Source: an uncultured Candidatus Saccharibacteria bacterium (lineage in GTDB: Bacteria; Patescibacteriota; Saccharimonadia; Saccharimonadales; 2-12-FULL-41-12). From it: a stretch of 64,000 nt of DNA. How positions within the stretch are numbered: the stretch's first letter is position 1; each line of letters starts with the position of its first letter. The position numbers and the translations under genes are program-made. The stretch lies in assembly GCA_947085855.1 (NCBI GenBank), contig CAMTYB010000001.1, positions 341,788-405,787 on the forward strand, written 5' to 3'. This document shows positions 9,460 through 58,943 of this stretch, piece after piece. The notes beneath the pieces are model-generated. The model did not search any database. It worked only from the letters and a program-made list of their open reading frames with translations, and was not told the origin of the DNA.

Positions 9460-9535
9460 ACTGGTTATCCTAAGTTACAAATCAATCCGGACAACTCATC
9501 TCGCTTCTTGAGAGTGACAGGACTTAACAGGAATC

Positions 9536-9563
9536 TGGTGGAGGCACCGGGGATCGAACCCGG
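9536..9563 (-). pseudogene. orphan tRNA 3' fragment (T arm + acceptor 3' strand + CCA)
   Basis: Minus strand CCGGG TTCGATC CCCGG TGCCTCC A CCA. No matching 5' acceptor strand (GG[AG]GG[CT][AG]) within 400 nt. Confidence 0.6.
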
Positions 9564-9644
9564 CCAAAACAAGATTGAAAAACAGATGTAAAGACGCTAA
9601 ACTGAAATAGGTTCGCATCCTATGTGCACGGCACCAGCCGTACT

Positions 9645-9673
9645 AAAAAGAGAGCATTTCATGCTCTCTTTTC
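9645..9673 (-). terminator. bidirectional intrinsic terminator after the 168-aa ORF
   Basis: AAAAGAGAGCAT, loop TTC, ATGCTCTCTTTT. U-tracts on both strands. Confidence 0.7.
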
Positions 9674-12086: not shown

Positions 12087-12710
12087 TTATAGCAAGAAAT
12101 CGAGCACTTGTTGATTCAAATTTGAGATAATGTCCGTGAAAGCTGGCACGGCTAGCACCAAGCCAAAGACAATGAAAATACCCACATTTTCGAGGCTTTC
12201 CATCACCCGCCTCAGCGGATCTGGCGCAAAGGCATACAAGAACCGTGAGCCGTCCAACGGCGGAATTGGGATCATATTAAACACAAACAAACCGATGTTT
12301 ATGATGACAAAAATAGCTACCACGTCTGTTACCGCGAGACTGAGGTCACCTTGGAACAACTTAAGGAAGACCGCGCCAAAGGCGGCCAACCCCAAATTAG
12401 TCAGCGGACCGGCCACACCAACGAGCGCCGCACCAAACTCATCAAACTTTACCCGATCAGGATTAAACGGCACTGGCTTGGCCGCCAACAGCGGCACTTT
12501 GAAGACAATGAGCGTAATGAGTGGCAACAACAGCGTTAGATACGGGTCTATGTGCTTGATAGGGTTGAGTGTAATTCTGCCTTCGTCTTTAGCCGTGCTA
12601 TCGCCGAGCCAGTGACTGGTAAAGGCGTGCATAGCCTCATGAATAGTGATAGACACAACGAGTACCAAAAACACCGTGATCAGTGTTCCAAAATCTAACG
12701 TATCAAACAT
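12087..12710 (-). CDS. site-2 protease family (M50) zinc metalloprotease
   Basis: 207 aa, HEAMHAFTSHWLGD (HExxH) in TM1, polytopic, with a downstream PPLDGS motif. Confidence 0.85.
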   Translation of the reverse strand: MFDTLDFGTLITVFLVLVVSITIHEAMHAFTSHWLGDSTAKDEGRITLNPIKHIDPYLTLLLPLITLIVFKVPLLAAKPVPFNPDRVKFDEFGAALVGVAGPLTNLGLAAFGAVFLKLFQGDLSLAVTDVVAIFVIINIGLFVFNMIPIPPLDGSRFLYAFAPDPLRRVMESLENVGIFIVFGLVLAVPAFTDIISNLNQQVLDFLL

Positions 12711-12774
12711 ATGCTTCTCAGTATATCAAACTGTAGTTATCCGCCGGCTGGGCTTTTTGAAGATAGTTTATGTC

Positions 12775-12878
12775 GGGGCACATTTTAAAAGGCACACGCA
12801 GTGTGCCGTGGGCATAAAGTTAACACCTTACAGCCCTGAATGTCGGCACACGGAGTGTGCCCTTTTGAATATGGTCCA
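12775..12878. repeat. palindromic MITE/REP-like element, copy A
   Basis: Hairpins GGCACAC GCA GTGTGCC (12791-12807) and GGCACAC GGA GTGTGCC (12845-12861). Inverted A/T-rich ends and a TTAACACCTTA core. Homologous to 18781-18897 and 37456-37559. Confidence 0.75.
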
Positions 12879-12896
12879 ACTATACACCGCAAACTG

Positions 12897-12925
12897 TTGA
12901 CTTCAGAGGTGTTACAGGGTAGAAT
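12897..12925 (+). promoter_or_regulatory. rpmB promoter (TTGACT-17 nt-TAGAAT)
   Basis: -35 at 12897-12902 and -10 at 12920-12925. Only 6 nt separate the -10 from the rpmB ATG (12932), and there is no SD, implying a leaderless mRNA. Confidence 0.5.
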
Positions 12926-12931
12926 ATAGGG

Positions 12932-13159
12932 ATGCAAAAATGTGAAATTACTGGTAAAGGCAAGCAATACGGCCACAACGTGAGCTTTTCTTTGCGCCGT
13001 ACCAAGAAAGTTTGGAAGCCAAATCTCCAAACCAAGACCGTCATTGTTGACGGTAAAAAGGTCCGCCTCAAGGTCAGCACCTCTGCTATCCGAACCTTGA
13101 AAAAGAAGGGCCTTCTCACAACTCCTCAAGCAGCCGCCAAAGCTGAAGCCAAGAAGTAA
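12932..13159 (+). CDS. rpmB: 50S ribosomal protein L28
   Basis: 75 aa, MQKCEITGKGKQYGHNVSFSLRRTKKVWKPNLQ. Confidence 0.95.
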   Translation: MQKCEITGKGKQYGHNVSFSLRRTKKVWKPNLQTKTVIVDGKKVRLKVSTSAIRTLKKKGLLTTPQAAAKAEAKK

Positions 13160-18681: not shown

Positions 18682-18758
18682 GGGCGATTAGCTCATTTGG
18701 CTAGAGCGCAGCATTGACGTTGCTGAGGTGATAGGTTCGAATCCTATATCGCCCACCA
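18682..18758 (+). tRNA. tRNA-Val(GAC)
   Basis: GGGCGAT TA GCTC ATTTGGCTA GAGC G CAGCA TTGACGT TGCTG AGGTG ATAGG TTCGAAT CCTAT ATCGCCC A CCA. Confidence 0.95.
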
Positions 18759-18780
18759 GATTTGAGAACAACCCATATGC

Positions 18781-18897
18781 TGTCTGGGCAAAGTTCACTC
18801 ACATTCAAAAGAGCACACGCCGTGGGTCATGAAGCATACTTTAACACCTTAGAAAATACTAAAAAGGCACACTGAGTGTGCCTTTTTAAATGTGAAC
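18781..18897. repeat. palindromic MITE/REP-like element, copy B
   Basis: Right hairpin GGCACAC TGA GTGTGCC followed by TTTTT (18867-18888). Left arm partly degraded (GAGCACACGCCGTGGGTC). Shared TTAACACCTTA core. Confidence 0.7.
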
Positions 18898-19254
18898 CTT
18901 CCCTACCCATCAAACCAAAGCAATTCACGTAGAATATTGACCTAACTGCTCGTTGATGGTAGCATTGTCAGGTTAAACAGGAGTTTTTGGACTACGTATG
19001 AGTTCCAAAACAGCAGCTTTTGTTTTGGAAGGTTTTAATCTTTATTACGAAGATATGAGACCTGCCAAAACTGCCAGTGTGAATCGTTAAGTTTACCTAT
19101 ATAAATAAGACCAAACTTACTGACTTCACTACTGTAACTAACCGTCTCTAACGCACAATCTACGCTCTATCAAATACTTGAAAGTGTAGCTTTATGCACT
19201 TCAAAAAGTAGTTATCCACTAGCTTTTTGTCCAGCGTAATGTCAATATATAGAC

Positions 19255-19662
19255 ATGGTATGCGTATATTGCGGTGGCAAGACCGCCGTCAAAAACTCGC
19301 GTGGCTCAGCCGCTCGTCAAACTACCTGGCGCCGACGCGAATGCTTAGCGTGCCATAGTCTGGTGACTACTCGAGAACAGATCGACTACACCTCAGCCTG
19401 GCGAGTCAAACACACCTCCTCTCAGCCCCTGAGGCCCTTCCTGAGGGACAAACTGTTCCTAAGTGTGTACGAATCCGTTTCGCACCGCAAAACTGCTCTC
19501 GAGGACGCTACGCAGCTTACAGATACAATTATTCCCTTGCTCGGCAGCCTGCAGCACACCGGCATCATTCCGATCAGCGGCATTATCCGCACTACGACTA
19601 CTGTTTTAGACCATTTTGACAATGCAGCTGGCGTCCATTACCAGGCGCACCACTCTCTGTAA
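19255..19662 (+). CDS. nrdR: NrdR-family transcriptional repressor
   Basis: 135 aa, N-terminal zinc ribbon C.YCG...C..C with RRREC, followed by a divergent ATP-cone. Confidence 0.75.
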   Translation: MVCVYCGGKTAVKNSRGSAARQTTWRRRECLACHSLVTTREQIDYTSAWRVKHTSSQPLRPFLRDKLFLSVYESVSHRKTALEDATQLTDTIIPLLGSLQHTGIIPISGIIRTTTTVLDHFDNAAGVHYQAHHSL

Positions 19663-37334: not shown

Positions 37335-37455
37335 AATAGATTCGCTTTTATATATTCTTTTGTTTTTGTTAATTCCCTGACATCAGTGTATATCATAAGC
37401 GCAAACAGTTACAAGTCTTTTTTCAAGCCAGTGCCTTAATAATATGTATATATTT

Positions 37456-37559
37456 GGGGCCACATTTAAAAAGACACACTCGGTGTGCTGTAGATAAAGA
37501 TTTTAAGGTGTTAAATTATGTCGTATGGCACACGGGGTGTGCCCTTTTCAATACCGTCC
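37456..37559. repeat. palindromic MITE/REP-like element, copy C (core inverted)
   Basis: GACACAC TCG GTGTGCT and GGCACAC GGG GTGTGCC hairpins. The core TTAAGGTGTTAA is the reverse complement of the core in copies A and B. Confidence 0.7.
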
Positions 37560-41743: not shown

Positions 41744-41784
41744 TAGCATAGTCTGGTGACCTGGGAGGGGCCAAACCCCCAACA
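41744..41784 (-). repeat. degenerate copy of the 3' half of tRNA-Arg(CCT)
   Basis: Plus strand TGGTGACCTGGGAGGGGCCAAACCCCCAACACCCCACCT versus TGGTGACCTGGGAGGGACTCGAACCCCCAACACCCACCT at 42379-42417. Same orientation. Confidence 0.75.
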
Positions 41785-41808
41785 CCCCACCTCACGATGA
41801 CAACTGTT

Positions 41809-42378: not shown

Positions 42379-42455
42379 TGGTGACCTGGGAGGGACTCGA
42401 ACCCCCAACACCCACCTTAGGACGGTGGTGTTCTATCCAATTGAACTACCAGGCC
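42379..42455 (-). tRNA. tRNA-Arg(CCT)
   Basis: Minus strand GGCCTGG TA GTTC AATTGGATA GAAC A CCACC GTCCTAA GGTGG GTGTT GGGGG TTCGAGT CCCTC CCAGGTC A CCA. Confidence 0.9.
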
Positions 42456-45571: not shown

Positions 45572-46504
45572 ATGTCGTACAATAAACGTATGCAGTTCCA
45601 ATCATTACTGACCGACTTCTTAGAATATCTTGAGATCGAACAAAATCGGTCGCAAAAAACTATTGCCAATTACGACCATTACCTCACTCGTCTTATAGAT
45701 TACGCCGGTGACATTAAAGTCAGCGACATTACGCCCGAACTCGTCCGCAAATGGCGCCTGTGGCTCAACCGACTCGGTACTAACACTGCCGACGAGCTGC
45801 AAAAAACTACCCAGAATTACCATCTGATAGCCCTGCGTAGCTTCTTGAAGTACTGCGCCAAACGAGACATTGTGGCCATGAGTCCAGAGAAGATTGAGTT
45901 GGCCCGGGTTCAACGCAAGCAAGTTACTTTTTTAAGCGACGACGAAATGGCACGACTCCTGGAGCAGCCAGATCTCAACACCGAAGCCGGCCTGCGCGAC
46001 CGCGCAATTTTGGAACTTCTCTACTCCAGCGGGCTGCGTGTTTCGGAACTAGTTGGACTCAACAAAGACCATATCAATCTGAAGCGCCGTGAATTTATGG
46101 TGCGCGGTAAAGGCCAGAAAGATCGACCAATTTTTGTCAGCGAAGAAGCGGCCGACTGGGTGCAGCGCTACGTCGATATGCGTACCGACGCCAGCCCTGC
46201 CCTGTTTGTACGGGTTGGTGGTCACAAGAAAGTCGATACCACCGGTAATTATTTGCGCCTAACTGCTCGTAGTGTCCAGCGAATGATTGCTCGATATGCC
46301 TTGATGGCCGGTATTACTAAAAAAGTTAGCCCGCATACCATGCGCCACAGTTTTGCGACAGACCTATTGATGAACGGAGCTGACTTGCGGTCGGTTCAGG
46401 CTATGCTCGGTCACAGTAATATAGCGACTACCCAAATTTATACACATGTCACCGACCCTCACCTCAAGAAGGTGCATGATCAATTCCACCGTCGTAAGGG
46501 CTAA
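45572..46504 (+). CDS. tyrosine recombinase XerC/XerD family
   Basis: 310 aa, C-terminal RHSFATDLLMNGADLRSVQAMLGHSNIATTQIYTHV (R..H..R..Y catalytic set). Confidence 0.9.
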   Translation: MSYNKRMQFQSLLTDFLEYLEIEQNRSQKTIANYDHYLTRLIDYAGDIKVSDITPELVRKWRLWLNRLGTNTADELQKTTQNYHLIALRSFLKYCAKRDIVAMSPEKIELARVQRKQVTFLSDDEMARLLEQPDLNTEAGLRDRAILELLYSSGLRVSELVGLNKDHINLKRREFMVRGKGQKDRPIFVSEEAADWVQRYVDMRTDASPALFVRVGGHKKVDTTGNYLRLTARSVQRMIARYALMAGITKKVSPHTMRHSFATDLLMNGADLRSVQAMLGHSNIATTQIYTHVTDPHLKKVHDQFHRRKG

Positions 46505-46507
46505 GCG

Positions 46508-47599
46508 CTACTGGAAGTAAGTGGCGCCGCCACAGTCGTTGGCTACGCCGTAGCCAGAGTAGACATCGAGACGCTTACATATACCATTCATGGATTCAAA
46601 GCCAGGAGGTGTTACTTCTTGAGGATAGAACGGTATGCGTACTTGCATACGGCGCATAACATCGCTCACTTTACCGGTTGAATCAATTTTGATTTGAGCT
46701 TCTTTGAAGCGAACGTTTTGATTCGATGCATCCCTACCTTCAATAGTAAGCGCCGAGTTGCTATAGATTGACGTAACCTTTACAAACAAACCATTAGCCG
46801 GCGGCAAACCCTGAATTGTAGCTCGGCATTTACCCGAGGAGCAGTCTGCTGCTGCCACAAAGCCTTCGTTCTCGCTACTACTGGCGTGGCGTGAGTAATT
46901 AACAAGTCCCGGACCAGTATCCCGCGTTGGGCGTAGAAATACTGTAAATTGATCCTCAGCTAAGCGCTCTCTGCTGATAGCACCGTTGGTAACCGGCATA
47001 AAACTGAGTCTCAAAATACCCGCGTCGCAGTTGTTGGAATAGGTTGGCTGAGTCGGGTAATTATGTATCGAAGCTATTGCCTCGCAGCCACCAAAATTCT
47101 GACCACCATCGATGTCATTCCATTCAACTATTACAGACCGTGGTGGCACATCGGTTGTTGTCTGCAATGATAGCAGTTCTCCTCGATAGCCATCTATTGA
47201 GCTGTACTCAAGTGTCTTTGGCGCTCGGTCAAATAGTACACAAATTTCCTGGAAAGTTGCGCTCGTATCGAGTTGAGCGGCGATAACGGGTGCTGCTGAG
47301 CAGGTTTCTTTTTTGTAGTCTGCGGCGACAATAGCCGCTAAATTGTCTGGGTTACGCAGGTACTTAGTGGCATCATTGATGCCTGATTCGGCCACATAGA
47401 AGGCTTGATTGGACAGCTGTCGATCGAGGGTTTGGCGTTGTTCTCGCCGACTTATTTCGGCAAAAGCCAGGACCGTTAGCGAGATGATTACTAAAAGAAA
47501 AACCGTTACCATAATAGCGGCCAGTCCAGATTCATTTGTACGGAGTTGTTTTAAGTTTTTCATACAAACTCTTTTATGCTTAATTTTAGTATACCTCAT
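46508..47599 (-). CDS. PilX-like minor pilin / pilus-assembly protein
   Basis: 363 aa. ESGLAAIMVTVFLLVIISLTVLAF matches the PilX N-terminal pattern. Likely start is the ATG at 47563 (MKNLKQL). Confidence 0.65.
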   Translation of the reverse strand: MRYTKIKHKRVCMKNLKQLRTNESGLAAIMVTVFLLVIISLTVLAFAEISRREQRQTLDRQLSNQAFYVAESGINDATKYLRNPDNLAAIVAADYKKETCSAAPVIAAQLDTSATFQEICVLFDRAPKTLEYSSIDGYRGELLSLQTTTDVPPRSVIVEWNDIDGGQNFGGCEAIASIHNYPTQPTYSNNCDAGILRLSFMPVTNGAISRERLAEDQFTVFLRPTRDTGPGLVNYSRHASSSENEGFVAAADCSSGKCRATIQGLPPANGLFVKVTSIYSNSALTIEGRDASNQNVRFKEAQIKIDSTGKVSDVMRRMQVRIPFYPQEVTPPGFESMNGICKRLDVYSGYGVANDCGGATYFQ

Positions 47600-48270
47600 A
47601 AGCGTTTTTTGACCGTCGTATTTAGTGAGCTAACGGCACAGAAACTGCCGCCGAGACTATTTGGCACGCAGACATTGCCTGGACTAATGTCCAAGTCTCC
47701 GTACACAACGGTGAGAGTGAAACTCAGGAATGTTCTATTTGGCGATTCGGTAAAGGTCAGGTTTGCCAAACGAGCATTTTGCGGCAGTAACTCCCGCCGC
47801 TGAGCAATAGCCTCGGCTGAAGTATTAGTGTTAGCGTCTTGCGGCACGGGGTTATTGAGGTCGAGTGGCGCACAGGTGGCACCATTATTTATCAGATCAA
47901 GCCAGAGAGCATGCGGTGTTGTTACAGTATCGAGATCACTCGTGCCACGGACTGGCACCCCTATCGTATAGGTAAATCGATAATTACCAATACAGGTGGC
48001 TGAGACCTGCAGACCGCTAAAGCCAACTGGCCCCTGAGTTGTAACACCGCTCGAACTATTAAACTGATACGCATTACTAATATCTTTAGTTATAGACCGA
48101 GTAACTTCTTGTGTCTTGCCGCTAATAATCCCCTTGTAGTACGCCCGGCCAATATACAGTAATCCGGTCGTAGCAATGAGAATAATGGTACTAAACACCA
48201 AAGTAGAGATCAGTAGCTCTACAAGCGTAAAGCCGGCCTGCTGTTTGGGCGTGGTCGTTTTCGTTTTCAT
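47596..48270 (-). CDS. prepilin-type minor pilin (PilW-like)
   Basis: 224 aa with a G|FTLVELLIS cleavage/methylation motif. Confidence 0.75.
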   Translation of the reverse strand: MKTKTTTPKQQAGFTLVELLISTLVFSTIILIATTGLLYIGRAYYKGIISGKTQEVTRSITKDISNAYQFNSSSGVTTQGPVGFSGLQVSATCIGNYRFTYTIGVPVRGTSDLDTVTTPHALWLDLINNGATCAPLDLNNPVPQDANTNTSAEAIAQRRELLPQNARLANLTFTESPNRTFLSFTLTVVYGDLDISPGNVCVPNSLGGSFCAVSSLNTTVKKRL

Positions 48271-49517
48271 CAGTTTCTAAAGAGCCTTACACTATCGATT
48301 TGCAGATTCGGGTCGTTACCGTTGTTATTTTGCCAAACTATGTACAAACGCTCGCCATGATCTGGTGGAATTACTACTTGCGTAGAGTGACTCATCTGCT
48401 GATCTTGGGCGCCAGCTGGTAAGGTCGGGTCGTCGCCAATAAATTGAGACGTGCTCCAATCGGTACCCGTGCGCACAATTAAGTTATAGCCTGGATAGCC
48501 AGCCGGTACAGCATTATTGAACTGACGATATGTAATCTCAAGCGTGGCTGGTCCTGGCTGTAGGCCAGGCATGTAGTATGTCACCAAGACTTCGCGCCAG
48601 GCTCGCATTGAATTTCCACTCTGGAAACATCCGTCGGCGCCATCATTCCATAGGCCTTCTGCAGCTGAACAGCCGATGTATTCACGACCAGCGGCCGTAG
48701 AACTGAAAGCTATAGCTGGATCTGGTGACTCGGTGTTGTCCTGAGCATTGGCGCAGCCTGGGTCATCTGGATAGTCTGTCCTGGTATCGCTATCATTGTC
48801 TTGTCCGTCAATACACTGCGGGTTAGTTTCATCGTTATCGGTGGCGCTGGTACAGCCCGGGTCGGCTGGATAATCAGTATGCGCGTCGCCGTCATCATTG
48901 ATACCATTTTGACATTGCTCTGGCGCCGTACCACTAACATAGAATGAATCGCTCGTGTTGTAGTAGAGGCTATAAAACGACCTGACTTCCTCAATTTCAC
49001 CACCGCCAGCTGGCAACCATCGGAGCGTGATAGCGTATGGCCGAACAGTTGGACTGGAACCAACAGCGACTGCGCGATCTGGCGACCAAATCATGACACT
49101 ATATAGATCATCGTTGGCATTATTGTCCAATCGACAGGCTGCGGGATACGCAGTCAAATCGTCGACTTCTTTATCAGCGACTGGTGGCGTAGCATCAGCC
49201 GACACAACCTGTATGCCCGTTGGTGCGGTCACTGGGTCAACTGGTACAGTCTGTAGACAGAAATAGGCATCATTGCCGGGTAGTGTCTGCACATCAGCAT
49301 ATGCCTTTAGAAGTTCAACCTGAGTCTCCAGGTATTTAGTGGCCAAAGAGCGTTCTTGGGATTTCTGGGTAGCAATGGTGCTGCGATTTGATAGTGCGTA
49401 GGCTGTGGTCAGCAGTAAGCTCAAAACAGCCGTACAGATGAGCACTTCGGCAATAGTATCGCCACGCTGACTGAGGTGTTTGATTTTACGCATTACACCA
49501 TTCATTAGGCTGCACAT
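48270..49517 (-). CDS. prepilin-type minor pilin with Cys/Asp-rich repeat domain
   Basis: 415 aa with G|DTIAEVLI. Two C..G.D.D.D..TDYP.DPGC repeats (48753-48914). Confidence 0.7.
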   Translation of the reverse strand: MCSLMNGVMRKIKHLSQRGDTIAEVLICTAVLSLLLTTAYALSNRSTIATQKSQERSLATKYLETQVELLKAYADVQTLPGNDAYFCLQTVPVDPVTAPTGIQVVSADATPPVADKEVDDLTAYPAACRLDNNANDDLYSVMIWSPDRAVAVGSSPTVRPYAITLRWLPAGGGEIEEVRSFYSLYYNTSDSFYVSGTAPEQCQNGINDDGDAHTDYPADPGCTSATDNDETNPQCIDGQDNDSDTRTDYPDDPGCANAQDNTESPDPAIAFSSTAAGREYIGCSAAEGLWNDGADGCFQSGNSMRAWREVLVTYYMPGLQPGPATLEITYRQFNNAVPAGYPGYNLIVRTGTDWSTSQFIGDDPTLPAGAQDQQMSHSTQVVIPPDHGERLYIVWQNNNGNDPNLQIDSVRLFRN

Positions 49518-50449
49518 CCTAGGGCTATAGCCTGGTCATCAAAGAAGGTTTGAGTCGACAAATTCTGGTCCGTACCTGCTGCTACAAACGACGTTGGACC
49601 ACCGCCTGGATCAAGTCGAACACCCAAACCTATAGCGGCTGAGCGGCCGCCAGGAGCGTCGCGCATACAAATAACAAGGCTGCGATAGGTATTGGCTGGG
49701 CCAACAATGTTAGCAGTAGACAACGTATCAACCGAGGCGGTCAAGTCACCGATGCCGCCGTTTAAGCCGACGTTACCACTGAGGGCGGCTAGGCTGGCTC
49801 GACCGTTAGCTAAGTTGGTTGCGGTGTTGTTGGTAGTCTGCAGGGCTACGCTCTGAACAATAGATATTTCAGGGAATGAATTTACTGTGCTATACGGGCT
49901 AAAATTAGTAACATACAACACTCTAGACACCTCTATGCCATTTCGAATTGATAGCTCTTCGATACCAGTGGTTCCGCTCGGACTATAAAATGCTCGTGGC
50001 ACTGATTCTTCAATACTAGCTGGCTGCTCGGTTTTACCGGTGGTGGGGTTAAAATCAAGTCGCTTACCGGCAATGCTAACAGCTCGAATATTAGATACGT
50101 ATCCAGACGGGTTTCGGTAGAATTGAACGGCTTTGCCTAAAAATACACATTCTTCATTGGTTCCCTGCGGTCGCGGTGTAGCCGTAACAACCGGGACTGC
50201 CGCCGGATTTGATGACATACCAGGGACAGTACAGCTAATCGAGCCGTTATTTGACGAGAAACCATTCTCGACATCGTTGATGAGGTCTTGCATACGCGAC
50301 TCTAGATCTCGTACACCGGTGGAAAACTGGGTTTGTTGCTGACGACCATTAATGAGTGTGCCGGCCGATATCAAAAGAGCGCCACTAATTGTCAGGAAAA
50401 TTAGTACCTCAAGAATAGTATATCCAGCCAAATTTTTTTGGCATTTCAT
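49505..50449 (-). CDS. prepilin-type minor pilin (FimT/GspH-like)
   Basis: 314 aa with G|YTILEVLIFL. Confidence 0.7.
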   Translation of the reverse strand: MKCQKNLAGYTILEVLIFLTISGALLISAGTLINGRQQQTQFSTGVRDLESRMQDLINDVENGFSSNNGSISCTVPGMSSNPAAVPVVTATPRPQGTNEECVFLGKAVQFYRNPSGYVSNIRAVSIAGKRLDFNPTTGKTEQPASIEESVPRAFYSPSGTTGIEELSIRNGIEVSRVLYVTNFSPYSTVNSFPEISIVQSVALQTTNNTATNLANGRASLAALSGNVGLNGGIGDLTASVDTLSTANIVGPANTYRSLVICMRDAPGGRSAAIGLGVRLDPGGGPTSFVAAGTDQNLSTQTFFDDQAIALGCAA

Positions 50450-50479
50450 ACTTCGCAGTATAGCATAAGCTCTATCTGT

Positions 50480-51316
50480 TTAAACCCCAGTAAATAGTGA
50501 TGTATACCAATCCAGCAAATCAACACCGTACAGCATGGTAATTATGCCGCCCACAATCAAAAATGGCCCGAAAGGTATCCGGCTTTTCCGGTTAAGTTTT
50601 TTGCTAGCCAACAGTGGTACCGTCAACAACGTACCGAGCAATGAAGCAATAAACAGCATGACTGCCGCCTCCAGCGGACTAAGCAAGAAGGCTCCGATCA
50701 AGAAGCCGAGTTTTACATCTCCCCCACCTATCCAGCTACCTTGCGACACCTGGAACAGCAGATAGAATATACCCCCACCAACCACAACTCCGCCTAGTGC
50801 TCCTAGTAGCGGCTGCGCGGACTGCTCAATGCCGACATTCACCAATACGAAGGCTGCAGCTACTGCGTACAGCGGGAAAATGATCCGATTTGGTAACAGC
50901 ATCCAGCGAAGATCATAGACCAACAATGCCATCAGGCCGGTCAAGCAGACCAACCACAAGCCAAATGAGGCCATTTCGAGCCCTTTTAGCTCCTCTGGCC
51001 AGGCGACATAGGAAAAGATAAACAGAGCGGCTGTGGTCAGCTCTACTGCAGGATACTGCCAACTGATTGATCCTTTACAGTAGCGGCACTTCCCGTGCAG
51101 GCTCAGCCAGCTCAAAACCGGTATCAAATCTTGTGCCCGTAGTGTGTGTCCGCAGTGCGTACAAACTGAGCGGCCTTTAGCTATAGACAGTTCCTCTGAG
51201 CTGACTTTTTTGATTCGCTTGGATGCTGGCAGAGCTTGTTGATGCAAGCGCCAGACTAAGGCGTTAACAAAGCTCCCTAAACAGAGTCCCAACAAGGTAA
51301 GTGCTGCAAAAATCAT
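50480..51316 (-). CDS. pilD: prepilin peptidase (A24 family)
   Basis: 278 aa. N-terminal GSFVNALVWRL, zinc-binding CTHCGH...CRYC, polytopic. Confidence 0.9.
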   Translation of the reverse strand: MIFAALTLLGLCLGSFVNALVWRLHQQALPASKRIKKVSSEELSIAKGRSVCTHCGHTLRAQDLIPVLSWLSLHGKCRYCKGSISWQYPAVELTTAALFIFSYVAWPEELKGLEMASFGLWLVCLTGLMALLVYDLRWMLLPNRIIFPLYAVAAAFVLVNVGIEQSAQPLLGALGGVVVGGGIFYLLFQVSQGSWIGGGDVKLGFLIGAFLLSPLEAAVMLFIASLLGTLLTVPLLASKKLNRKSRIPFGPFLIVGGIITMLYGVDLLDWYTSLFTGV

Positions 51317-51341
51317 TATGCTCTAGCTTATCACTAAACAG

Positions 51342-51371
51342 AAAAAAACGGGACTGGATTGTCCCGTTTTT
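51342..51371 (-). terminator. intrinsic terminator between pilA and pilD
   Basis: Minus strand AACGGGAC, loop AATCCA, GTCCCGTT, then TTTTTC. Lies 19 nt after the pilA stop. Confidence 0.7.
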
Positions 51372-51389
51372 CCTGATCGCCTGACCTAT

Positions 51390-51974
51390 TTAGAGGTTCT
51401 GGCAGACACCTACGAGGCCACCTTGGCGCTCTGTAGGATAGATCAACACTACAGTTCGAGGTGTAGCACCGTTAGTAGTAGCGATGTTGCCAGCGCCGTT
51501 ACCGATGGTTGTAGCTACGTTAGTAGTGTTAGTACCTGGATCACCGTATGGAGTTGCTCCGTTGTCGTTACACTTCAAGTTGTTTCGCAACAATACTTGG
51601 TCGGTACCGATGTTAGCTGGCAATGTTGCAGCTGCACCTGGGGCAACCCATGTGTAGTCAAGTCGCAATAGCTGAGTTCGGCGAACGTTCTCAATCACGT
51701 CAGGGATTGCTGTAGCAGCACCGTCTTGCGTATGAGTTACGTTAGCTTGGGTAGCTAAGTTACCGTTGTTATTGTTGATAGCTTCTTGTGTCGCACCAGC
51801 CAATGAAGCTGCATCGTTCTTACGTTGCGTGTTACGGCTGTTACGTTGGAGTGAAGGTACCGCTAGGAACACGATCAATACAATCAGACCGGCAATAGCG
51901 AGTACAATCAAGACTTCGATAATGGTGAAGCCCTTTTCTTGTTTCTTTAGTAGTGGTAATTTCATTATGATCAC
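51390..51974 (-). CDS. pilA: type IV major pilin
   Basis: 194 aa with KG|FTIIEVLIVLAIAGLIV. Own terminator and short spacing to pilC. Confidence 0.85.
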   Translation of the reverse strand: MIIMKLPLLKKQEKGFTIIEVLIVLAIAGLIVLIVFLAVPSLQRNSRNTQRKNDAASLAGATQEAINNNNGNLATQANVTHTQDGAATAIPDVIENVRRTQLLRLDYTWVAPGAAATLPANIGTDQVLLRNNLKCNDNGATPYGDPGTNTTNVATTIGNGAGNIATTNGATPRTVVLIYPTERQGGLVGVCQNL

Positions 51975-52069
51975 ACCCTCCTGTGATGCATGATTATTGT
52001 TGGTTATGCTTACATACTAGGTTAGCTTTTTGTTTATTGCAAGCAGTTTTCCCCAGTTTTGTATATCTG

Positions 52070-53302
52070 TTACTTAATAATGTCTTTACCGGCCAGGCCA
52101 TAGATCGGCAAAAGAACGGCAGCTACGATGGCAAACGCCACGATACCAAGCAGCACCATCATTAGTGGCTCGATGATAGTAGAGATGGTCTTAATCTGGT
52201 TATCAACTTCTTTTTCGTAGTAGTCAGCTGTTTTTTCGAGCATATCCTCTAAGGAACCTGATTCCTCACCAATACGAAGCATGTTTGGCACGAGTACCAG
52301 GAAGTTCGGATCTCCTTCTATGGAGTCTGAGAGTGACTTACCGCCCTTTACCTTCTCGATAGCCCTATTAACTGAGCGCTCCAGGTGTACGTTGTTAATG
52401 GACTGAGACACAACCTCAAGCATCTGGATCAGTGGCACACCGCTGGCAACCAGTGTTGTGCCAGTACGTGCAAAGCGCGCCATATAGAGCTTCATAAACA
52501 ACGGTCCAAACGGCCAGGCCTTCATCTTTAGGCCATCGATGACATCCCGACCAGGACCAGTCCGAGCATACTTAGTCACAGCAAAGCCTAAGAAGATTAA
52601 AATACCTATGACGATATACCAATAATCAGTTATGAAGTGTGATGCGGCTAACATAACCTTGGTGATGAGTGGCAGCTCAGCGCCAGGAATGTCTTTGTAG
52701 ATAACCTCTACTTGAGGCAAAACCTTTACAAGCATAAAGCCTACGACACCGATCATAACGAGGATAACAACTGCCGGATAAGCCAGGGCGCCTTTGATCT
52801 TACCCATAATTTCGGCGTCTTTTTCTTGCTGGAAGGCAATGCGCTCCAAGGCTTTGTCGAGCGTACCAGAAACTTCACCGGCTGCCATCAAGTTAATGTA
52901 GATGTTGTTAAAGACTTTGGGGTGCTTCTTTAAAGCCTCAGAGAACGAAGTTCCACCTTCGATATCGCTAATAATTTCGTTAATGACCGACTTGAGAGCT
53001 TTGTTCTCTGTTTGGTCGTTTACACTGCGCAATGACTGCACCAGTGGTAAACCGGCATTGATCAAGGTCGACATTTGGCGAGAAAAGACAATTTTCTCTT
53101 TGGTTTTAATGCGATTCTTGTACCACTCAATGGGGTTAAACTTGCCGAGTGTTCCGCTAGCACCTTCTTCTTTGATGTCAATCGGCGCCAAGCCTTGTTG
53201 CTGAATTAGCTTGGCAGCACCAGCCTCATTATCGGCCTGTAGCGTAGCTTTAATCTGTTGGCCAGTAGCTGGGTCGCGAGCGGTATATTTGTATGTAAGC
53301 AT
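52070..53302 (-). CDS. pilC: type IV pilus platform protein (GspF/PilC family)
   Basis: 410 aa with duplicated T2SS-F domains and 3 TM segments. Confidence 0.9.
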   Translation of the reverse strand: MLTYKYTARDPATGQQIKATLQADNEAGAAKLIQQQGLAPIDIKEEGASGTLGKFNPIEWYKNRIKTKEKIVFSRQMSTLINAGLPLVQSLRSVNDQTENKALKSVINEIISDIEGGTSFSEALKKHPKVFNNIYINLMAAGEVSGTLDKALERIAFQQEKDAEIMGKIKGALAYPAVVILVMIGVVGFMLVKVLPQVEVIYKDIPGAELPLITKVMLAASHFITDYWYIVIGILIFLGFAVTKYARTGPGRDVIDGLKMKAWPFGPLFMKLYMARFARTGTTLVASGVPLIQMLEVVSQSINNVHLERSVNRAIEKVKGGKSLSDSIEGDPNFLVLVPNMLRIGEESGSLEDMLEKTADYYEKEVDNQIKTISTIIEPLMMVLLGIVAFAIVAAVLLPIYGLAGKDIIK

Positions 53303-53324
53303 GTTTGTTCTCTTTAGTTTGACC

Positions 53325-54392
53325 CTATGATCTCATGAGCCGATCTAATTCATCAAGGTCAACGGCTACATTGCGAGCCTCATCATAGGTAATAGTACCA
53401 GCGTGAATCAGGTTAACAAGGGTCTTGTCCATAGACTGCATACCGTGTTCGGAGCCAGTCTGGATAACTGCCTCTAACTGGTGCGTCTTGCCTTCACGAA
53501 TAATGTTACGGACGGCTGGTGTAGCCACCATGACTTCAGCGGCAGCAATACGGCCGCCACCAATGGTTGGGATAAGGCGCTGCGAACAGATGCCCATCAA
53601 GATATTGCTCAGCTGGGCTCGAATTTGCGGCTGCTGGTGCGGCGGAAAAACGTCAATCATACGATCAATACTCTGAGCTGCACCGTTAGTGTGCAGCGTC
53701 GCAAACACCAAGTGACCGGTTTCGGCAATCGTAATTGCCGAAGCAATCGTCTCGAGGTCACGCATCTCACCAAGCAATACAACGTCCGGGTCCTGGCGCA
53801 AGCTACTACGTAAAGCTGCCGAGAATGAGAACGTGTCATAATGCACTTCTCGCTGTACGATGACTGATTTGTTGCTCTTGTGCGTAAATTCGATCGGATC
53901 TTCAATAGTCACAATGTGAACCGCTTTTTCGACGTTAATCTTATGGACTAACGCCGCCAAGGTTGTCGACTTACCAGAACCGGTTGGACCGGTTACTAAG
54001 ATAAGACCTCTCGGGTAATCAGCGAATTTAGAGATAATTGGCGGCAAACCAAGCTGTTCGAGAGTTGTGATCTCATTAGGAATTAGTCGCAAAGCGGCTG
54101 CTATATTACCTCGTTCGTGGAAAGCGTTAACACGGAAGCGGCCAAGGTCGCCAAAGGCAAAGCTAAAGTCAAATTCTTTATCTTTTAATAAGATCTGTTT
54201 TTGCTCGTCATCAAGAATAGCAAAAACGAGTGATTCGACTGATTCTTCGTTGAGTACAGTTCCGCCGGTTACAGATACCAAAGCACCGTCAACACGCAGC
54301 ATTGGTGGCAGGCCAACTTGCAAGTGCAAGTCAGAGGCTTTCTTTTTTATAACTTCTTCTAAAAGTGTTTCTATTCGTATGTGTGCTGTCAC
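53325..54392 (-). CDS. pilT: twitching-motility retraction ATPase PilT
   Basis: 355 aa, Walker A GPTGSGKST, His box and PilT-type C-terminus. Confidence 0.9.
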   Translation of the reverse strand: MTAHIRIETLLEEVIKKKASDLHLQVGLPPMLRVDGALVSVTGGTVLNEESVESLVFAILDDEQKQILLKDKEFDFSFAFGDLGRFRVNAFHERGNIAAALRLIPNEITTLEQLGLPPIISKFADYPRGLILVTGPTGSGKSTTLAALVHKINVEKAVHIVTIEDPIEFTHKSNKSVIVQREVHYDTFSFSAALRSSLRQDPDVVLLGEMRDLETIASAITIAETGHLVFATLHTNGAAQSIDRMIDVFPPHQQPQIRAQLSNILMGICSQRLIPTIGGGRIAAAEVMVATPAVRNIIREGKTHQLEAVIQTGSEHGMQSMDKTLVNLIHAGTITYDEARNVAVDLDELDRLMRS

Positions 54393-54418
54393 GGTGGTGC
54401 CCTTTATTTCCCCTCTGG

Positions 54419-56251
54419 TTACGCGCTATCAGCGGCGGCGACGCGATTAACTTCGCTTACGGTGGTATACCCTGCTAACGCCTTAAAGTAGCCGTCTTCG
54501 CGCATGGTCACCATGCCTTGCTCTTGAGCAGCTCGCTGGATCTCGGCACTGGTTGCTCGCTTGAGAATCAGTTGCTGAATGGCCTCATCGATTTCAAAAA
54601 CTTCGTAGAGGCCCATTCTACCCTTATAACCAGCTGGCGTTTCCCGGGTATCCTTACCCTTGTACAAAGTATAAGCATTTTGACCAGTCAGTGGCAAGCT
54701 TTCGTAGCCAAAATCTTCGGCTGCTGCTGCCATCTCTTCTTTTGTTTTGGGCAAGAATTTACCAATATTATCAATTATGGCCTCTGTTTCGGGCACCGTA
54801 GCGTCGTACGTCTCTTTGTTTTCAGCCACACGCCGAACCAAGCGCTGACCAATAACCGTTCGCACGGTAGAGGCAATCAAGAATGGCTCGATGCCCATAT
54901 CCAGTAAGCGCGGCAAAATACCGGCAGCGGAGTTAGTGTGCAGCGTACTAAATACCAAGTGACCAGTTAAGGCTGCCTGTACTGCTAATTGGGCAGTTTC
55001 TTTGTCACGAATCTCACCGACCATAACCACGTCTGGGTCCTGACGCAAGATCGAGCGAAGACCAGAAGCAAATGTCAGGCCGACTTCGGTATTAACCTGT
55101 ATCTGATTAATGCCGTCCATCTTGTACTCGACCGGGTCTTCCAAGGTAACAATGTTGATAGTGTCGCTCTTAACTTCATTTAACAGCGCGTACATAGAGG
55201 TGGATTTACCTGATCCGGTCGGGCCAGAGGTTAAAATCATACCGTTTGGATTTTCGATACCGCGTCGAATTGTTCGCAGTGCGCGTCCGTGGTAGCCCAT
55301 GTCTTCTAGGCGCAGGCTTGTGCCGCTCTTGTCTAGCAGACGAATAACAACCTGTTCACCCCATACAACTGGCGAGATAGCAATACGAAGATCGATTGCC
55401 TTGTCACCCACTGCTACGGTAAACTGACCGTCTTGAGGAATACGATGTTCGTCAATCTTTAGGTTACTTAAAATCTTGATACGAGATATAAGGGGTGGTT
55501 CGATGCTCTTTGGCAACTTCATAATTTCCCGCAACACACCGTCAATTCGACAACGAATCTTGAGTTCCTTTTCTAATGGTTCAATATGGATGTCACTGGC
55601 ACGACTCTTGGCCGCATAATCAAGAATGGTAGACAGTGCCTTACTGATTGGTGAGTCTTGCACAATGGTTGTAATGTTTTTGTGCTCAGGACCGGCTGGG
55701 ACTGCCACTGTGCCATCGGCTGCTTTTTCGCCAGGTTGCACGCCAGCAACAGATTGATAGTCGCTATCAACGTGGGCGCCGATAGTTTTAGCAACATCAG
55801 CTTCAACGTCTTCACTGTACTGCTCAAGAACCTTGCGAATGCCTGCTTCGCTCGCGGTATACACTTTGAGCTCGCGACCAATTCGGTTAGACAAGAAGTC
55901 GACCGCCTGAACGTTATCAGCGTCAAGCATGGCCACGACTAACTTATGCTGGATCTGGCCCAATGGTACCGCCATGTAGCGCTCGGCAACTTCTTTTGAT
56001 ATAAGGCGCAGTATTTCTTTGTCGATATGCGCATCCAGCAGGTTCACATAGGGTACGTGGTTGATCTTAGCCGTGACTTTAGTTAAGACTTCGTTAGAGA
56101 CCTTGCCTTCTTCCACGAGCATACCAAAGAAAGGCTTAGCGTCTTTCTCTGCCTTTTCCTTGATACTCTCAAGTTCGTTTTGCTGCACATAGCCTTCAGC
56201 GACGAGCATTTGCTCGACTTGCTTTTGGTTGGCAGCCGATAGGATACTCAC
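54419..56251 (-). CDS. pilB: type IV pilus extension ATPase (GspE/PilB family)
   Basis: 610 aa, N-terminal GSPII_E_N-like domain and Walker A GPTGSGKST. No tetracysteine zinc motif noticed by eye. Confidence 0.9.
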   Translation of the reverse strand: MSILSAANQKQVEQMLVAEGYVQQNELESIKEKAEKDAKPFFGMLVEEGKVSNEVLTKVTAKINHVPYVNLLDAHIDKEILRLISKEVAERYMAVPLGQIQHKLVVAMLDADNVQAVDFLSNRIGRELKVYTASEAGIRKVLEQYSEDVEADVAKTIGAHVDSDYQSVAGVQPGEKAADGTVAVPAGPEHKNITTIVQDSPISKALSTILDYAAKSRASDIHIEPLEKELKIRCRIDGVLREIMKLPKSIEPPLISRIKILSNLKIDEHRIPQDGQFTVAVGDKAIDLRIAISPVVWGEQVVIRLLDKSGTSLRLEDMGYHGRALRTIRRGIENPNGMILTSGPTGSGKSTSMYALLNEVKSDTINIVTLEDPVEYKMDGINQIQVNTEVGLTFASGLRSILRQDPDVVMVGEIRDKETAQLAVQAALTGHLVFSTLHTNSAAGILPRLLDMGIEPFLIASTVRTVIGQRLVRRVAENKETYDATVPETEAIIDNIGKFLPKTKEEMAAAAEDFGYESLPLTGQNAYTLYKGKDTRETPAGYKGRMGLYEVFEIDEAIQQLILKRATSAEIQRAAQEQGMVTMREDGYFKALAGYTTVSEVNRVAAADSA

Positions 56252-56263
56252 GTACCGAGGCTC

Positions 56264-56500
56264 CTAGAATGGGTTCGCGTTAGAACCGTTACCGATTTCG
56301 ATAAGTTGGGTTGGGTTGATCGCGTTATTATTGAAGACTTTATTATCCGGCTGTTGGAACTCAGACTTGATTGGTTCAACAATCTGCGCCGATAGCTCCT
56401 TGTTTTTCTTTGGCACAAAGAACTGTTGTGTTAGTACTATCGAGATAACTCCACCGATAGCAGCTACAATCAAGATGAGGGCAATATCTTTTTGTTTCAT
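56264..56500 (-). CDS. small single-pass membrane protein in the pilus operon
   Basis: 78 aa, positioned between pilO-like and pilB. Confidence 0.55.
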   Translation of the reverse strand: MKQKDIALILIVAAIGGVISIVLTQQFFVPKKNKELSAQIVEPIKSEFQQPDNKVFNNNAINPTQLIEIGNGSNANPF

Positions 56501-56501
56501 A

Positions 56502-57173
56502 TTATTTCTTCTTCACCGTTTCGGTTTTAATATCAAATTTCATTGGTGGCTGGAAATAGGTCTTAGCATCAACAGTAATTTTTAGCGAGCCTGGATCACC
56601 AGTAATCGTCAGTTTTTTAACCTGCATTGGTCGAATGGAGCGTTCAAAGGTTTGCAAAATTGGCTTTATCGAGCCAGCCGTGCCGTTAACAAGTACTGTG
56701 TACGGTACGTCAATCGGCTGTGGTGCCGCACTGGCCGTGGCAGCTCCTTGAGCAAGTTCATCGTCAGTTCCAGTTATGGCTTCTACGTTATAGTCCTTGA
56801 GCATTTTGTTCAGACTGGTAGTTAACGCCGGGAAGTCATACTTACTTGGCAATGCATCCAGTATAATTCGCGGGTTTTCACCGTCTTTATCGCCCGTACC
56901 CTTAGCATTGCCTCCCAGCACGTTTGTTTGGCTGTCGGCAAAGGTCTGGTAAGCCGTCTTGAGCTTGTTAACTTCTTCTACGTTTTTCTCGAGCTGGTCA
57001 CGAGCCTTTTTCTTCTTATCGATAACTTCGGCTTGGTATGACTGCTGCTTGATCAGTGAGTTAGAAGCTACAATTGAGAAAATTATGAGAATTGAAGCCA
57101 GGCCAACAGCGATAACAATGGTTGTGTTGTCTTTGTCGATAGCGAGCTGCTTGAGCGAAAGTTGCTTACCCAT
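56502..57173 (-). CDS. pilO: PilO-like pilus assembly protein
   Basis: 223 aa with an N-terminal TM segment, a coiled coil and a ferredoxin-like C-terminus. Follows pilN, with start/stop overlap. Confidence 0.6.
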   Translation of the reverse strand: MGKQLSLKQLAIDKDNTTIVIAVGLASILIIFSIVASNSLIKQQSYQAEVIDKKKKARDQLEKNVEEVNKLKTAYQTFADSQTNVLGGNAKGTGDKDGENPRIILDALPSKYDFPALTTSLNKMLKDYNVEAITGTDDELAQGAATASAAPQPIDVPYTVLVNGTAGSIKPILQTFERSIRPMQVKKLTITGDPGSLKITVDAKTYFQPPMKFDIKTETVKKK

Positions 57174-57910
57174 TACTGCACTCCCCCTTCTGGTTTAACT
57201 TCAGGAGCCGGTACAAATAGCTGGTTTGGTTTTTCGGTGGCAGATCGGGTTGAGGTAATGCTTGGAACTGTCAAGATAACTTGCGGCGAGTTCTCTGGTG
57301 CATCTTTGACCTGAGTAAAGATAGCCGGGTCAAAATTAAAGCTCAGTTCATACGTCAGCTGCTCACCTTGAGAGCTCTTGATGGTAAAGTTAGTGAGCAC
57401 CACGCTACTAAAGGCCTTGCCAGTTCGCTTACCAGACTGACTATCAATCGTAAAATCAGTAAACTTTAGCGTATCGGCAAACTTGTTGATGGTCACGAGA
57501 TTGTCGGCCGTTCCACTCAATTTCATGTTATTGCCTTCAAAATCTACTCCGACATCGGATATGCTAGCCTGATTTGGTGTGATTTGCGTCAAGAAGTCGA
57601 TCAATCGCGAGCTAATTACCTTTTTGTCATGTAGTTCAGGTAGTTTGTTGAGCTGATTTTGAATCGTCAGAATTTTATCGAGATCATTAACTTCTTGAAT
57701 CTTAGCCGTACTATCCTTGATCTCGCTATCTAGATTGCTGATATGTCGCGTCTGGTTAACGCGCACGAATAGGAACAAGAGGAGAAATATCGCCAAACAA
57801 ACACCGCTCGCAATAATACAGACAAAGACTATCAAACGCTTACGATTGCGCGTCTTTATGTAGTCAATTTTAACGTCTGGTAAGAGGTTAAACTGAATCA
57901 TATTATTCAT
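57173..57910 (-). CDS. pilN: PilN-like pilus assembly protein
   Basis: 245 aa, IQFNLLPD followed by a TM segment. Confidence 0.75.
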   Translation of the reverse strand: MNNMIQFNLLPDVKIDYIKTRNRKRLIVFVCIIASGVCLAIFLLLFLFVRVNQTRHISNLDSEIKDSTAKIQEVNDLDKILTIQNQLNKLPELHDKKVISSRLIDFLTQITPNQASISDVGVDFEGNNMKLSGTADNLVTINKFADTLKFTDFTIDSQSGKRTGKAFSSVVLTNFTIKSSQGEQLTYELSFNFDPAIFTQVKDAPENSPQVILTVPSITSTRSATEKPNQLFVPAPEVKPEGGVQ

Positions 57911-58943
57911 CCCTCTCCGCTAGACCAACGGCCACACCAAAGTGGTTAGACAAAGCCATCAACTCATTTTGTCGCTCTAGACCATACTGGACGTTGCGCC
58001 AGGCGTTACCAATTTCAACATTAATGCCAAACCGATTAGCAATGTGCAGCGGAAACTCTGGCAAAGCCGAGGCACCACCGGTCATCACAATCCGTTCAAT
58101 CTTAGTGTTGTTGTAGCGCGTTTGGAAGAATTTAATCGACTTATCGATGTCGTTCATCAACAGATCAATCGTACCAACGATAGCATGATACACTTGGCCC
58201 TCCAGCTTCTGCTGGCTCAAACCAAATTTAAAGACAAACTCCTGGGCCTGCTTTTCATCAATACTCAAATTCTGCTGAGCTGCCCGGATAATTGCCTCTG
58301 AACCAGTTGCCACAGCACGTGTGAGGCGCGGAACACCGCCCATAGTAATGACAATGTCGGTGCTCTTGCTACCAATGTCGATAACCATCTGTGGAGCTGC
58401 TGCCTCCAACGGTGTCATGGCTCGAACTAAGGCTAGATTATCTGGTTCAAATGAAATAACGTTGAGACCAATTGACTCTAGCAAATCGAGTCGCTCTTCG
58501 ACGAAGCTATTTGGCACACTTGAGAGCAGGATCTCAACTTTATTAGGGTCTTTTGGCGAGTCACCAAGCAAAGCCCAATCAATCTTTGATTCAGCTAGTG
58601 GCGTCGGTATCAGTGAATCAGCCTGGAATCGAATCGTTTTAGCTAGTTCATTCTGATCAAGTCGCTCGATATCGACGACTGCCGTAAAGACACGCGATGA
58701 CGGTATGCCAACAGCAACATTCTTAGTATTAATCTGAGCCTGCGCCAACATATCTTTGATGGCATTGGCCACCTTCTGCTGATCGGCCTTGGCATCGCTC
58801 AGCGCAATCTTGCTATCAATAGGGGCCATTGCATAGCGTAACAACTGTTTTGACTTTGGATTGTTGGTAACCTGAACAGCCCTGATGGCCGTTGTCCCTA
58901 CATCAAGTCCAAAGAATTCGGATACCCCACTCAGTAAACTCAT
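57903..58943 (-). CDS. pilM: type IV pilus assembly ATPase-fold protein PilM
   Basis: 346 aa, actin-like FGLDVGTTAIRAV and a second phosphate motif MTGGAS. Confidence 0.85.
   Translation of the reverse strand: MSLLSGVSEFFGLDVGTTAIRAVQVTNNPKSKQLLRYAMAPIDSKIALSDAKADQQKVANAIKDMLAQAQINTKNVAVGIPSSRVFTAVVDIERLDQNELAKTIRFQADSLIPTPLAESKIDWALLGDSPKDPNKVEILLSSVPNSFVEERLDLLESIGLNVISFEPDNLALVRAMTPLEAAAPQMVIDIGSKSTDIVITMGGVPRLTRAVATGSEAIIRAAQQNLSIDEKQAQEFVFKFGLSQQKLEGQVYHAIVGTIDLLMNDIDKSIKFFQTRYNNTKIERIVMTGGASALPEFPLHIANRFGINVEIGNAWRNVQYGLERQNELMALSNHFGVAVGLAERDE

Follow-up and report, generated by a model that had tools for sequence, protein, structure and literature searches.

A family of small palindromic repeats with terminator-shaped arms, inserted between genes in one Saccharimonadales strain

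Members of a palindromic repeat family were inserted into the intergenic DNA of a Candidatus Saccharimonadales (TM7/CPR) strain after its lineage had split from the nearest sampled relatives, as shown by the comparison of occupied and empty sites. The analysis covered a 64,000-nucleotide stretch (hereafter the window) of a genome of about 0.82 Mb (817,656 nt), together with same-strain Logan contigs, which match the window at 100% identity and added about 9 kb on each side (about 20 kb). In the resulting 84 kb or so, we counted four full copies and one solo arm, all of them intergenic. We consider it probable that the element is a small, non-coding and non-autonomous palindromic repeat of the MITE/REPIN kind. 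Intergenic repeats of this general kind with terminator-shaped arms are already known; the family itself is new and belongs, so far, to one strain.

The genomes of Saccharibacteria, as of CPR bacteria in general, are very small and densely packed, and little mobile DNA is usually ascribed to them. The presence of at least four intergenic gains in one strain, relative to its nearest relatives, indicates that intergenic architecture can turn over quickly in reduced genomes. One of these gains replaced a tRNA terminator, and another landed exactly between two divergent promoters that overlap. The element is thereby a strain marker, and it provides a natural experiment on the effect of inserted terminator hairpins on neighbouring genes.

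Architecture of the repeat family

The three copies that the original prediction had placed in the window were all found there, and MAFFT aligned them without gaps over about 100 nt. Their conserved module of 97 nt is located at 12779..12875 on the plus strand (C1, CACATTTTAAAAG ... GAATATGGT; nhmmer score 88.5 bits), at 18800..18896 on the plus strand (C2; 85.6 bits) and, in inverted orientation, at 37459..37555 on the minus strand (C3; 88.2 bits). The six hairpins of these copies were grouped by a repeat finder into a single repeat family, with a start-to-start distance of 54 nt in each element, and every full copy carries paired GGCACAC-N3-GTGTGCC hairpins spaced by exactly this distance. 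An arm is made of an A/T-rich tip and the 7-bp GGCACAC/GTGTGCC hairpin with its 3-nt loop, for a length of about 30 nt; the arms delimited by the repeat finder (about 29 nt) were 93% complementary between copies. The central motif conserved between the arms is TTAACACCT. A motif search of the window identified TTAACACCTTA as the invariant core of C1 to C3, with three exact occurrences (12820..12830 and 18841..18851 on the plus strand, 37504..37514 on the minus strand) and none outside the elements. The core stands at the midpoint between the two palindromes and includes CACCU (anti-Shine-Dalgarno-like) on the element strand and AAGGTG (Shine-Dalgarno-like) on the opposite strand. The sequence GGCACACNNNGTGTGCC has four exact matches inside the elements, and six when up to three mismatches are allowed; the total at this tolerance was 11, against 2.55 expected, a number that was reached in none of 100 shuffles. 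In the third copy, an inversion restricted to the core had been proposed. The inversion exists, but it involves the entire element: a 52-nt inverted match between C2 and C3, returned by the repeat finder, established that C3 is reverse-complemented throughout.

The same-strain DNA just beyond the window contains an additional full copy (C4) and a solo arm, in support of the claim that the element is dispersed. Single arms therefore exist besides full copies. No further member was detected with the nhmmer profile in the 84 kb of the strain. The 97-nt module does not contain any reading frame that is open or conserved across the copies, and a search of 1.8 billion proteins with a profile of the arm-encoded peptides (HLKRHTxCA...) returned only unrelated repeat proteins. 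ATG codons are present 7-8 nt after AAGGTG in C1 to C3; a reverse-strand micro-ORF preceded by this Shine-Dalgarno-like motif was ruled out, since the ATG frames differ and the peptides are not conserved.

As a single strand, the full element folds into one long hairpin in which the left arm pairs with the right, with z-scores of -2.7 to -7. Taken individually, seven of the nine arms form stems of 5-7 bp (-4.3 to -12.5 kcal/mol) followed by T4-5, which is comparable to the native terminator of a relative (-8.9 kcal/mol), and four arms were flagged as terminator-like by a generic scan. In C1, the left hairpin, GGCACAC-GCA-GTGTGCC (12791..12807, plus strand; -11.3 kcal/mol), matches the repeat unit exactly and is followed on the minus strand by TTTTAAAA, making it terminator-like for leftward transcripts, while the right one, GGCACAC-GGA-GTGTGCC followed by CTTTTGAA (12845..12861, plus strand; -11.0 kcal/mol), was among the flagged arms. 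The left hairpin of C2 (18812..18828, plus strand) is eroded, as had been noticed, to AGCACAC-GCC-GTGGGTC, and reaches only -1.5 kcal/mol compared with about -11 kcal/mol for intact arms. The right hairpin of the same copy (18866..18882, plus strand; -12.5 kcal/mol), preceded by A5 and followed by T5, has a perfect bidirectional terminator shape. In C3, the element-left hairpin is GGCACAC-CCC-GTGTGCC (37527..37543, minus strand; -10.7 kcal/mol), and the element-right one is AGCACAC-CGA-GTGTGTC followed by T5 (37473..37489, minus strand; -5.9 kcal/mol), with a G.U pair on the element strand; the latter is terminator-like for the leftward-transcribed operon of the sortase and a 49-aa ORF.

Each element had been predicted to supply two back-to-back terminators. 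The terminator shape was recovered in silico for the seven arms mentioned above, but the order of events would be different from that implied: since the T-tracts are on the outer sides, a transcript from either flank would run through the whole element before ending at the opposite arm. With an outward stem and T-tract per arm, a copy should consequently be able to stop transcription coming from both sides, and an insertion into a tightly packed genome might thereby be harmless or even useful.

The four modules share 65-71% identity in pairwise comparisons. This overall figure covers very different values for the parts of the element, with 80% and 86% for the hairpins (the right arm being the best conserved), 86% for the core and 33-41% for the two linkers, whose identity of 0.37 is to be compared with a random expectation of 0.28 at their composition. 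At 4-fold degenerate sites, the window strain still shares 60-74% identity with its relatives. The divergence between the copies thus exceeds what could have accumulated after the split of the strain, which suggests that they descend from an older, already diverse pool. The hairpins, the core and the spacing appear to be the constrained parts of the element, and the conserved modules, set against the randomised linkers, suggest a functional core that can be recognised as such. Hairpins and core would most likely have been kept because the copying or moving machinery of the element recognises them.

The composition of the module also raises the question of a tiny RNA gene, a reading that we regard as very unlikely. 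Transcription would start at the core, under the control of a weak internal promoter with the A/T-rich tip as UP element and a CATAAT-like -10 at module positions 35-41, and would produce an RNA of about 45 nt with an anti-Shine-Dalgarno-like 5' seed (ACACCUU) and the right arm as terminator. The hexamers CATAAA, CATACT and CATAAT, which precede the core by about 6 nt in C1 to C3, are in agreement with such a promoter, but the hexamer is shifted by 1 nt in C1 and missing in C4, no acceptable -35 is available (GGCACA), and the generic promoter scan did not report any internal promoter. Likewise, the CACCU/AAGGTG pair of the core and the strong conservation of the right arm would suit an RNA with this seed and this terminator, but no match to the element was obtained in Rfam 15 at the gathering threshold, the near-matches being generic long-hairpin (miRNA-precursor) families with 15-22 bits for thresholds of 50-100. 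The stems scarcely vary among the four copies and hence offer no covariation evidence either for or against an RNA structure.

Occupied and empty insertion sites

Relatives were found via the proteins flanking the copies. They share 86-93% DNA identity with the window strain, the closest of them reaching 96-99% identity in flanking proteins.

C1 is located between the divergent genes of an M50 protease (12087-12710, minus strand) and rpmB (12932-13159, plus strand), in agreement with the original prediction. The M50 protease has thousands of homologues, of which the named ones belong to Candidatus Saccharimonadales. The strain-specific segment at this site is 167 nt long (12729..12895, plus strand), replaces GGA/GCA and is absent in four relatives. 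It is composed of C1 with unique DNA on both sides (50 nt on the left and 20 nt on the right) and fits exactly between the predicted extended -10 of the M50 gene (TGATATACT; 12720..12728, minus strand), which was spared by the insertion, and the -35 of the predicted rpmB promoter (TTGACT-17-TAGAAT; 12897..12925, plus strand), which is kept in relatives and abuts the insert on the right. In the empty sites of L124, L171, L125 and L126, the extended -10 and the -35 are three bases apart (tatatca-GGA-gttgact). The 7-nt direct repeat CAAACTG flanks the insert (12727..12733 and 12890..12896, both on the plus strand) and may correspond to a target duplication, but the empty sites of the relatives read CAGGAG/CAGCAG. 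Site 1 is empty in more distant relatives too, so that a gain in the window lineage is the parsimonious reading. No transcript needs terminating between these divergent promoters, as would be expected if the insertion were selfish or neutral.

The extended -10 TGATATAC(T/A) is apparently used both by the M50 gene (12720-12728, minus strand) and by a 60-aa ORF (37355-37363, minus strand). Its position within about 10 nt of the M50 start codon suggests that the M50 mRNA is leaderless or near-leaderless.

C2 is found 3' of tRNA-Val (18682-18758), as the gene coordinates confirmed. In L124 and L171, the tRNA gene is followed by a native terminator, GACCGA-TTTCA-GTCGGTC-TTTTT. In the window, C2 and its unique flanks are present instead, the segment standing in for this terminator extending from 18777 to 18916 on the plus strand (18777..18916, approximate boundaries as compared with the two relatives). 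C2 thus appears to have functionally replaced the tRNA-Val terminator at site 2. On the 3' side of C2, a promoter-like sequence (TTGACC-17-TAGCAT) precedes a short ORF and then nrdR.

Several other features were observed around tRNA genes and nrdR. The T-stem of tRNA-Val (window 18730-18750 versus L124:1425-1445) reads gatagg/cctata in the window and in L171 and ggcagg/cctgca in L124, a compensatory double substitution between strains with flanking proteins that are about 98-99% identical. A hairpin, TTCAAAAAGTAGTTATCCACTAGCTTTTTG, whose loop contains the DnaA-box-like TTATCCAC, is located at 19195-19225, upstream of nrdR (19255-19662), and is also conserved in L124; a weaker relative of this motif, TCAAACTGTAGTTATCCGCC...CTTTTTG, occurs at 12726-12765 in the left, unique portion of the insert at site 1. 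Two tRNA-like fragments are present on the minus strand, one (9535-9650) being acceptor/T-arm-like and similar to the tRNA-Arg at 6010-6081, the other (41754-41797) similar to the tRNA-Arg at 42379-42455. Neither fragment was called at threshold by ARAGORN or Rfam. A tmRNA at 9535-9650 was rejected, as a weak 3'-end match (E = 0.005) obtained in a short-range scan disappeared in a 1-kb scan.

C3 lies inside the sortase-to-tat gene string, where the gene tables confirmed its reported location, between the 49-aa ORF downstream of the sortase gene and the 60-aa ORF of a string ending in tatC. The intergenic region measures 213 nt in the window versus 89 nt in L169 and L170, as expected for a clean insertion of about 125 nt. 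By alignment, the insert proper is a 118-nt segment (37427..37544, minus strand) absent from both relatives, which read CGTATTGAAAAAGACTTG without interruption. It is bordered by a 7-nt duplication of TTGAAAA (37545-37551 and 37420-37426), a sequence present only once in the empty sites. The element had been described with A/T-rich ends; for the outer tip of C3, GGTATTGA, this attribution did not hold, since the tip belongs to the 49-aa ORF, being its Tyr-stop end, and also occurs in the empty sites of the relatives.

C4, the fourth full copy, lies between the ychF stop codon and the next gene (L175:278-374). It keeps the 54-nt spacing and has a slightly different core, TGAACACCTCT. In the relative L191, ychF and the following gene are separated by 41 nt, to which the window strain adds 158 nt, and no target duplication was seen in comparison with this empty site. 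The solo arm, of the right type (AGCACAC-GGA-GTGTGCG-CTTTTGAAAGTGG), is located just after gyrA (L193:11595-11629), about 11 kb to the left of the window start, and is the sole hairpin between gyrA and the promoter of the rRNA operon.

That promoter reads TTGACA-17-TAATAT, and the contig stops at the 5' end of the 16S rRNA. A second strain-specific gain is present beside C4: a three-gene island encoding a MarR regulator, an MFS transporter and an MMPL transporter (L175:1891-6191), between ychF and a 6-phosphogluconate-dehydrogenase-like gene, is absent from L191 (6182-6324).

The four sites occupied by full copies were thus all empty in close relatives, and the nhmmer profile detected neither copies nor arms in the roughly 70 kb of DNA compared from the relatives. 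These observations support the original view of a mobile miniature element. The result named beforehand as contradicting it, a lack of further copies together with strict positional conservation, was looked for and the opposite was observed. The contexts of insertion are varied, being beside promoters, at a stop codon or in replacement of a native terminator.

The hypothesis of ordinary intrinsic terminators, either vertically conserved or evolved independently and alike by chance, would account for terminator-shaped arms and for a solo arm at the end of the gyrBA operon. A terminator role also fits C2 after a tRNA and C3 and C4 after ORFs. We nevertheless find this hypothesis scarcely credible: it does not explain a common non-terminator core and a fixed spacing of 54 nt, nor the position of C1 between divergent promoters, and it conflicts with sites that are all empty in relatives, one of which, site 2, has a different native terminator.

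The same contexts can be examined from the side of the promoters. Each of the four copies has a promoter-like region directly downstream, and the module could be a cassette kept by the host for the binding of a protein, with the two 17-bp palindromes as operators placed on the same helix face (54 bp, about five turns) and a central asymmetric site, for instance for a bending protein, which would insulate or regulate the adjacent promoters. The fixed gapless spacing, the core midway between the palindromes and the conservation of palindromes and core next to randomised linkers would all be expected of such a cassette. Its absence from every site in close relatives, however, means that the flanking genes do not need the element; these genes are functionally unrelated (rpmB, the M50 protease gene, tRNA-Val/nrdR, the sortase-tat string and ychF), the solo arm is a plain gene-end hairpin, and no candidate regulator was identified. 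Protein binding for the benefit of the host therefore seems to us a doubtful explanation, and we retain that of a non-autonomous repeat of the MITE/REPIN kind.

Search for a mobiliser and route of insertion

At 125-167 nt, the inserts exceed the 97-nt module, and each of them includes 20-70 nt of unique DNA beside it, without match to other sequence compared, a feature that clean cut-and-paste or copy-and-paste elements do not usually show. As regards the outermost ends of the element, the inserts reach beyond the arms at the sites compared with relatives. The fate of the target also varied from site to site, with a clean 7-nt duplication at site 3, a repeat in mismatch with the empty site at site 1, no duplication at site 4 and a replacement at site 2. 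Insertion is demonstrated by these comparisons. Judging from the junctions, the copies could have arrived either by DDE-type transposition, for which the duplication at site 3 provides a parallel, or by recombination at short homologies following DNA uptake.

A cognate transposase was looked for, as the original prediction had suggested, and none was found in the 64-kb window or in the 20 kb of flanks, according to the domains of the ORFs and the gene tables. The only recombinase of the window is a XerC/D-like tyrosine recombinase (45572-46504, plus strand) with a Phage_integrase domain and an N-terminal SAM-like domain; it is adjoined by a cluster of type IV pilus genes (46508-58943). Two candidate roles were tried and rejected. 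By inspection, only C1 resembles the XerC arm of a dif/Xer site, and the resemblance is not conserved. A DNA-uptake sequence was discarded, since the arms are too infrequent for this and the relatives do not have them.

We also searched for members of the family elsewhere. An exact pattern of the arm had 42 matches in JGI metagenomes, none of which came from the element family and most of which belong to an unrelated freshwater or giant-virus repeat; the negative result concerns exact-arm matches in that collection. Three patterns run on IMG/VR did not return anything related to the element, and a BLASTN search of plasmids and phages with the site-1 insert did not give any match. Phrase matching in the top-ranked literature on CPR bacteria and repeats did not retrieve MITE or REP phrases.

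An unrelated palindromic repeat of about 115 nt, TTAAACCGTCGAAGAATTAAAATGGCACAAAGTGCCATTTTTTCTTCTAGGTTCGAGACCGATAACCATTTAATAAGGCACACAAAGTGTGCCGTTTTAAATGTTCATCGGTTTAA, was encountered in low-GC freshwater contigs, including giant-virus MAGs (GVMAG), with about 30 near-identical copies on different contigs (L128-L168 in JGI, L184-L190 in IMG/VR). It resembles a MITE, of either giant viruses or their hosts.

Natural transformation has reportedly been observed in Saccharibacteria, which are said to be naturally competent. An intergenic cassette devoid of mobility of its own might accordingly have spread by uptake and recombination at short homologies. Homology-facilitated illegitimate recombination would leave filler DNA and sometimes replace the resident sequence, and the inserts do present unique extra DNA beside every module, as well as, at site 2, a native terminator replaced with superimposed T-tracts. 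The target at site 3, ATTGAAAAAG, is similar to the element tip ATTNAAAAG, which could have provided a short homology; there, however, the 7-nt duplication is of the type left by transposition. The divergence between copies, greater than that between host lineages, would be explained by a diverse external pool, but the patterns and queries used did not identify a donor in JGI metagenomes, IMG/VR, plasmids or phages, and four independent gains within 84 kb of one strain, with none in its relatives, would require an abundant one. The lack of a consistent target duplication and of a nearby transposase, and the pilus genes in the window, are in favour of uptake. On balance we judge this route unlikely, though deserving of consideration, and keep the preference for a MITE- or REPIN-like repeat moved by an activity encoded elsewhere than in its own module.

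Comparison with known repeats and terminators

Compared with intrinsic terminators, the arms have the expected G+C-rich stem of 6-7 bp with a 3-nt loop, a T-tract of 4-5 and a stability of -4 to -12.5 kcal/mol. They differ from them in being paired around a common core, in being repeated elsewhere as strain-specific insertions and in having one copy where no transcript needs ending. Several features of MITEs were found: the element is well below 1 kb, non-coding and dispersed, has terminal inverted repeats, and its presence varies between relatives.

Among MITE families, the closest parallel is offered by the Correia/NEMIS elements of Neisseria (other examples being RUP, ERIC and Nezha MITEs), which are non-coding and intergenic, measure about 100-160 nt with terminal inverted repeats of about 26-30 nt, vary in presence between strains and can act as terminators. 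The central protein-binding site of Correia elements is an IHF site. Such a site was considered for the core of the TM7 element and rejected, no match to the IHF consensus being visible by inspection. The TM7 element also lacks any sequence similarity to Correia elements and any TA target duplication, and the divergence among its copies is far greater (65-71% identity).

REP, BIME and REPIN sequences are mobilised by RAYT tyrosine transposases, and the RAYT gene is usually flanked by REPs. Like the TM7 element, they are built from imperfect palindromes (20-40 nt), single or in inverted pairs with a short spacer, the pair folding as one long hairpin, and they are intergenic, often at gene ends. 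In contrast to them, the TM7 element carries a conserved asymmetric core in its spacer, and the 84 kb examined in the strain yielded no RAYT (Y1 HUH transposase). One of its insertions has a 7-nt duplication; mobility of the RAYT/IS200 type is not known to produce target duplications. REPs are further characterised by a conserved unpaired tetranucleotide, GTAG (or CGTC), at one end of the palindrome, and GTAG-tagged REPs have been described in PVC bacteria (PMC3733652). Neither tetranucleotide was present beside the stem in any of the nine TM7 arms, where the tip CAYATTNAAAAR and an outward T-tract are found.

A two-hairpin pattern retrieved a very abundant REPIN of this GTAG type from Planctomycetota/PVC bacteria, at more than 118 loci (L006-L123; for instance L012:550-615 and L020:6104-6171), a count to be taken as at least that. 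Among the matches listed, it reads GTAGCAG-GCACAC-TCC-GTGTGCC-GT, a spacer of about 35 nt and AC-GGCACAC-GGA-GTGTGCC-TGCTAC, and its hosts include Pirellulales, Thermoguttaceae, Gemmataceae, Tepidisphaeraceae, Poribacteria and Victivallales. Its 7-bp stem is identical to that of the TM7 arms, four of which also share its GGA loop. The common stem may be a coincidence, since exactly this stem was sought by the scan pattern. The identity of the hairpins and the contrast between modules and linkers are the two points that could raise the significance of the element. A further reading is that selection within each copy, in addition to descent, keeps the modules, the element being a portable bidirectional terminator-insulator cassette with a core binding a protein or ribosome/RNA, which would spread horizontally and be acquired by an ultra-small, naturally competent CPR bacterium by uptake and recombination without a transposase. 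We hold this to be improbable; were it true, the hairpin held in common with the GTAG-REPs of PVC bacteria could mean that the TM7 and PVC repeats draw on a shared, widely recognised module.
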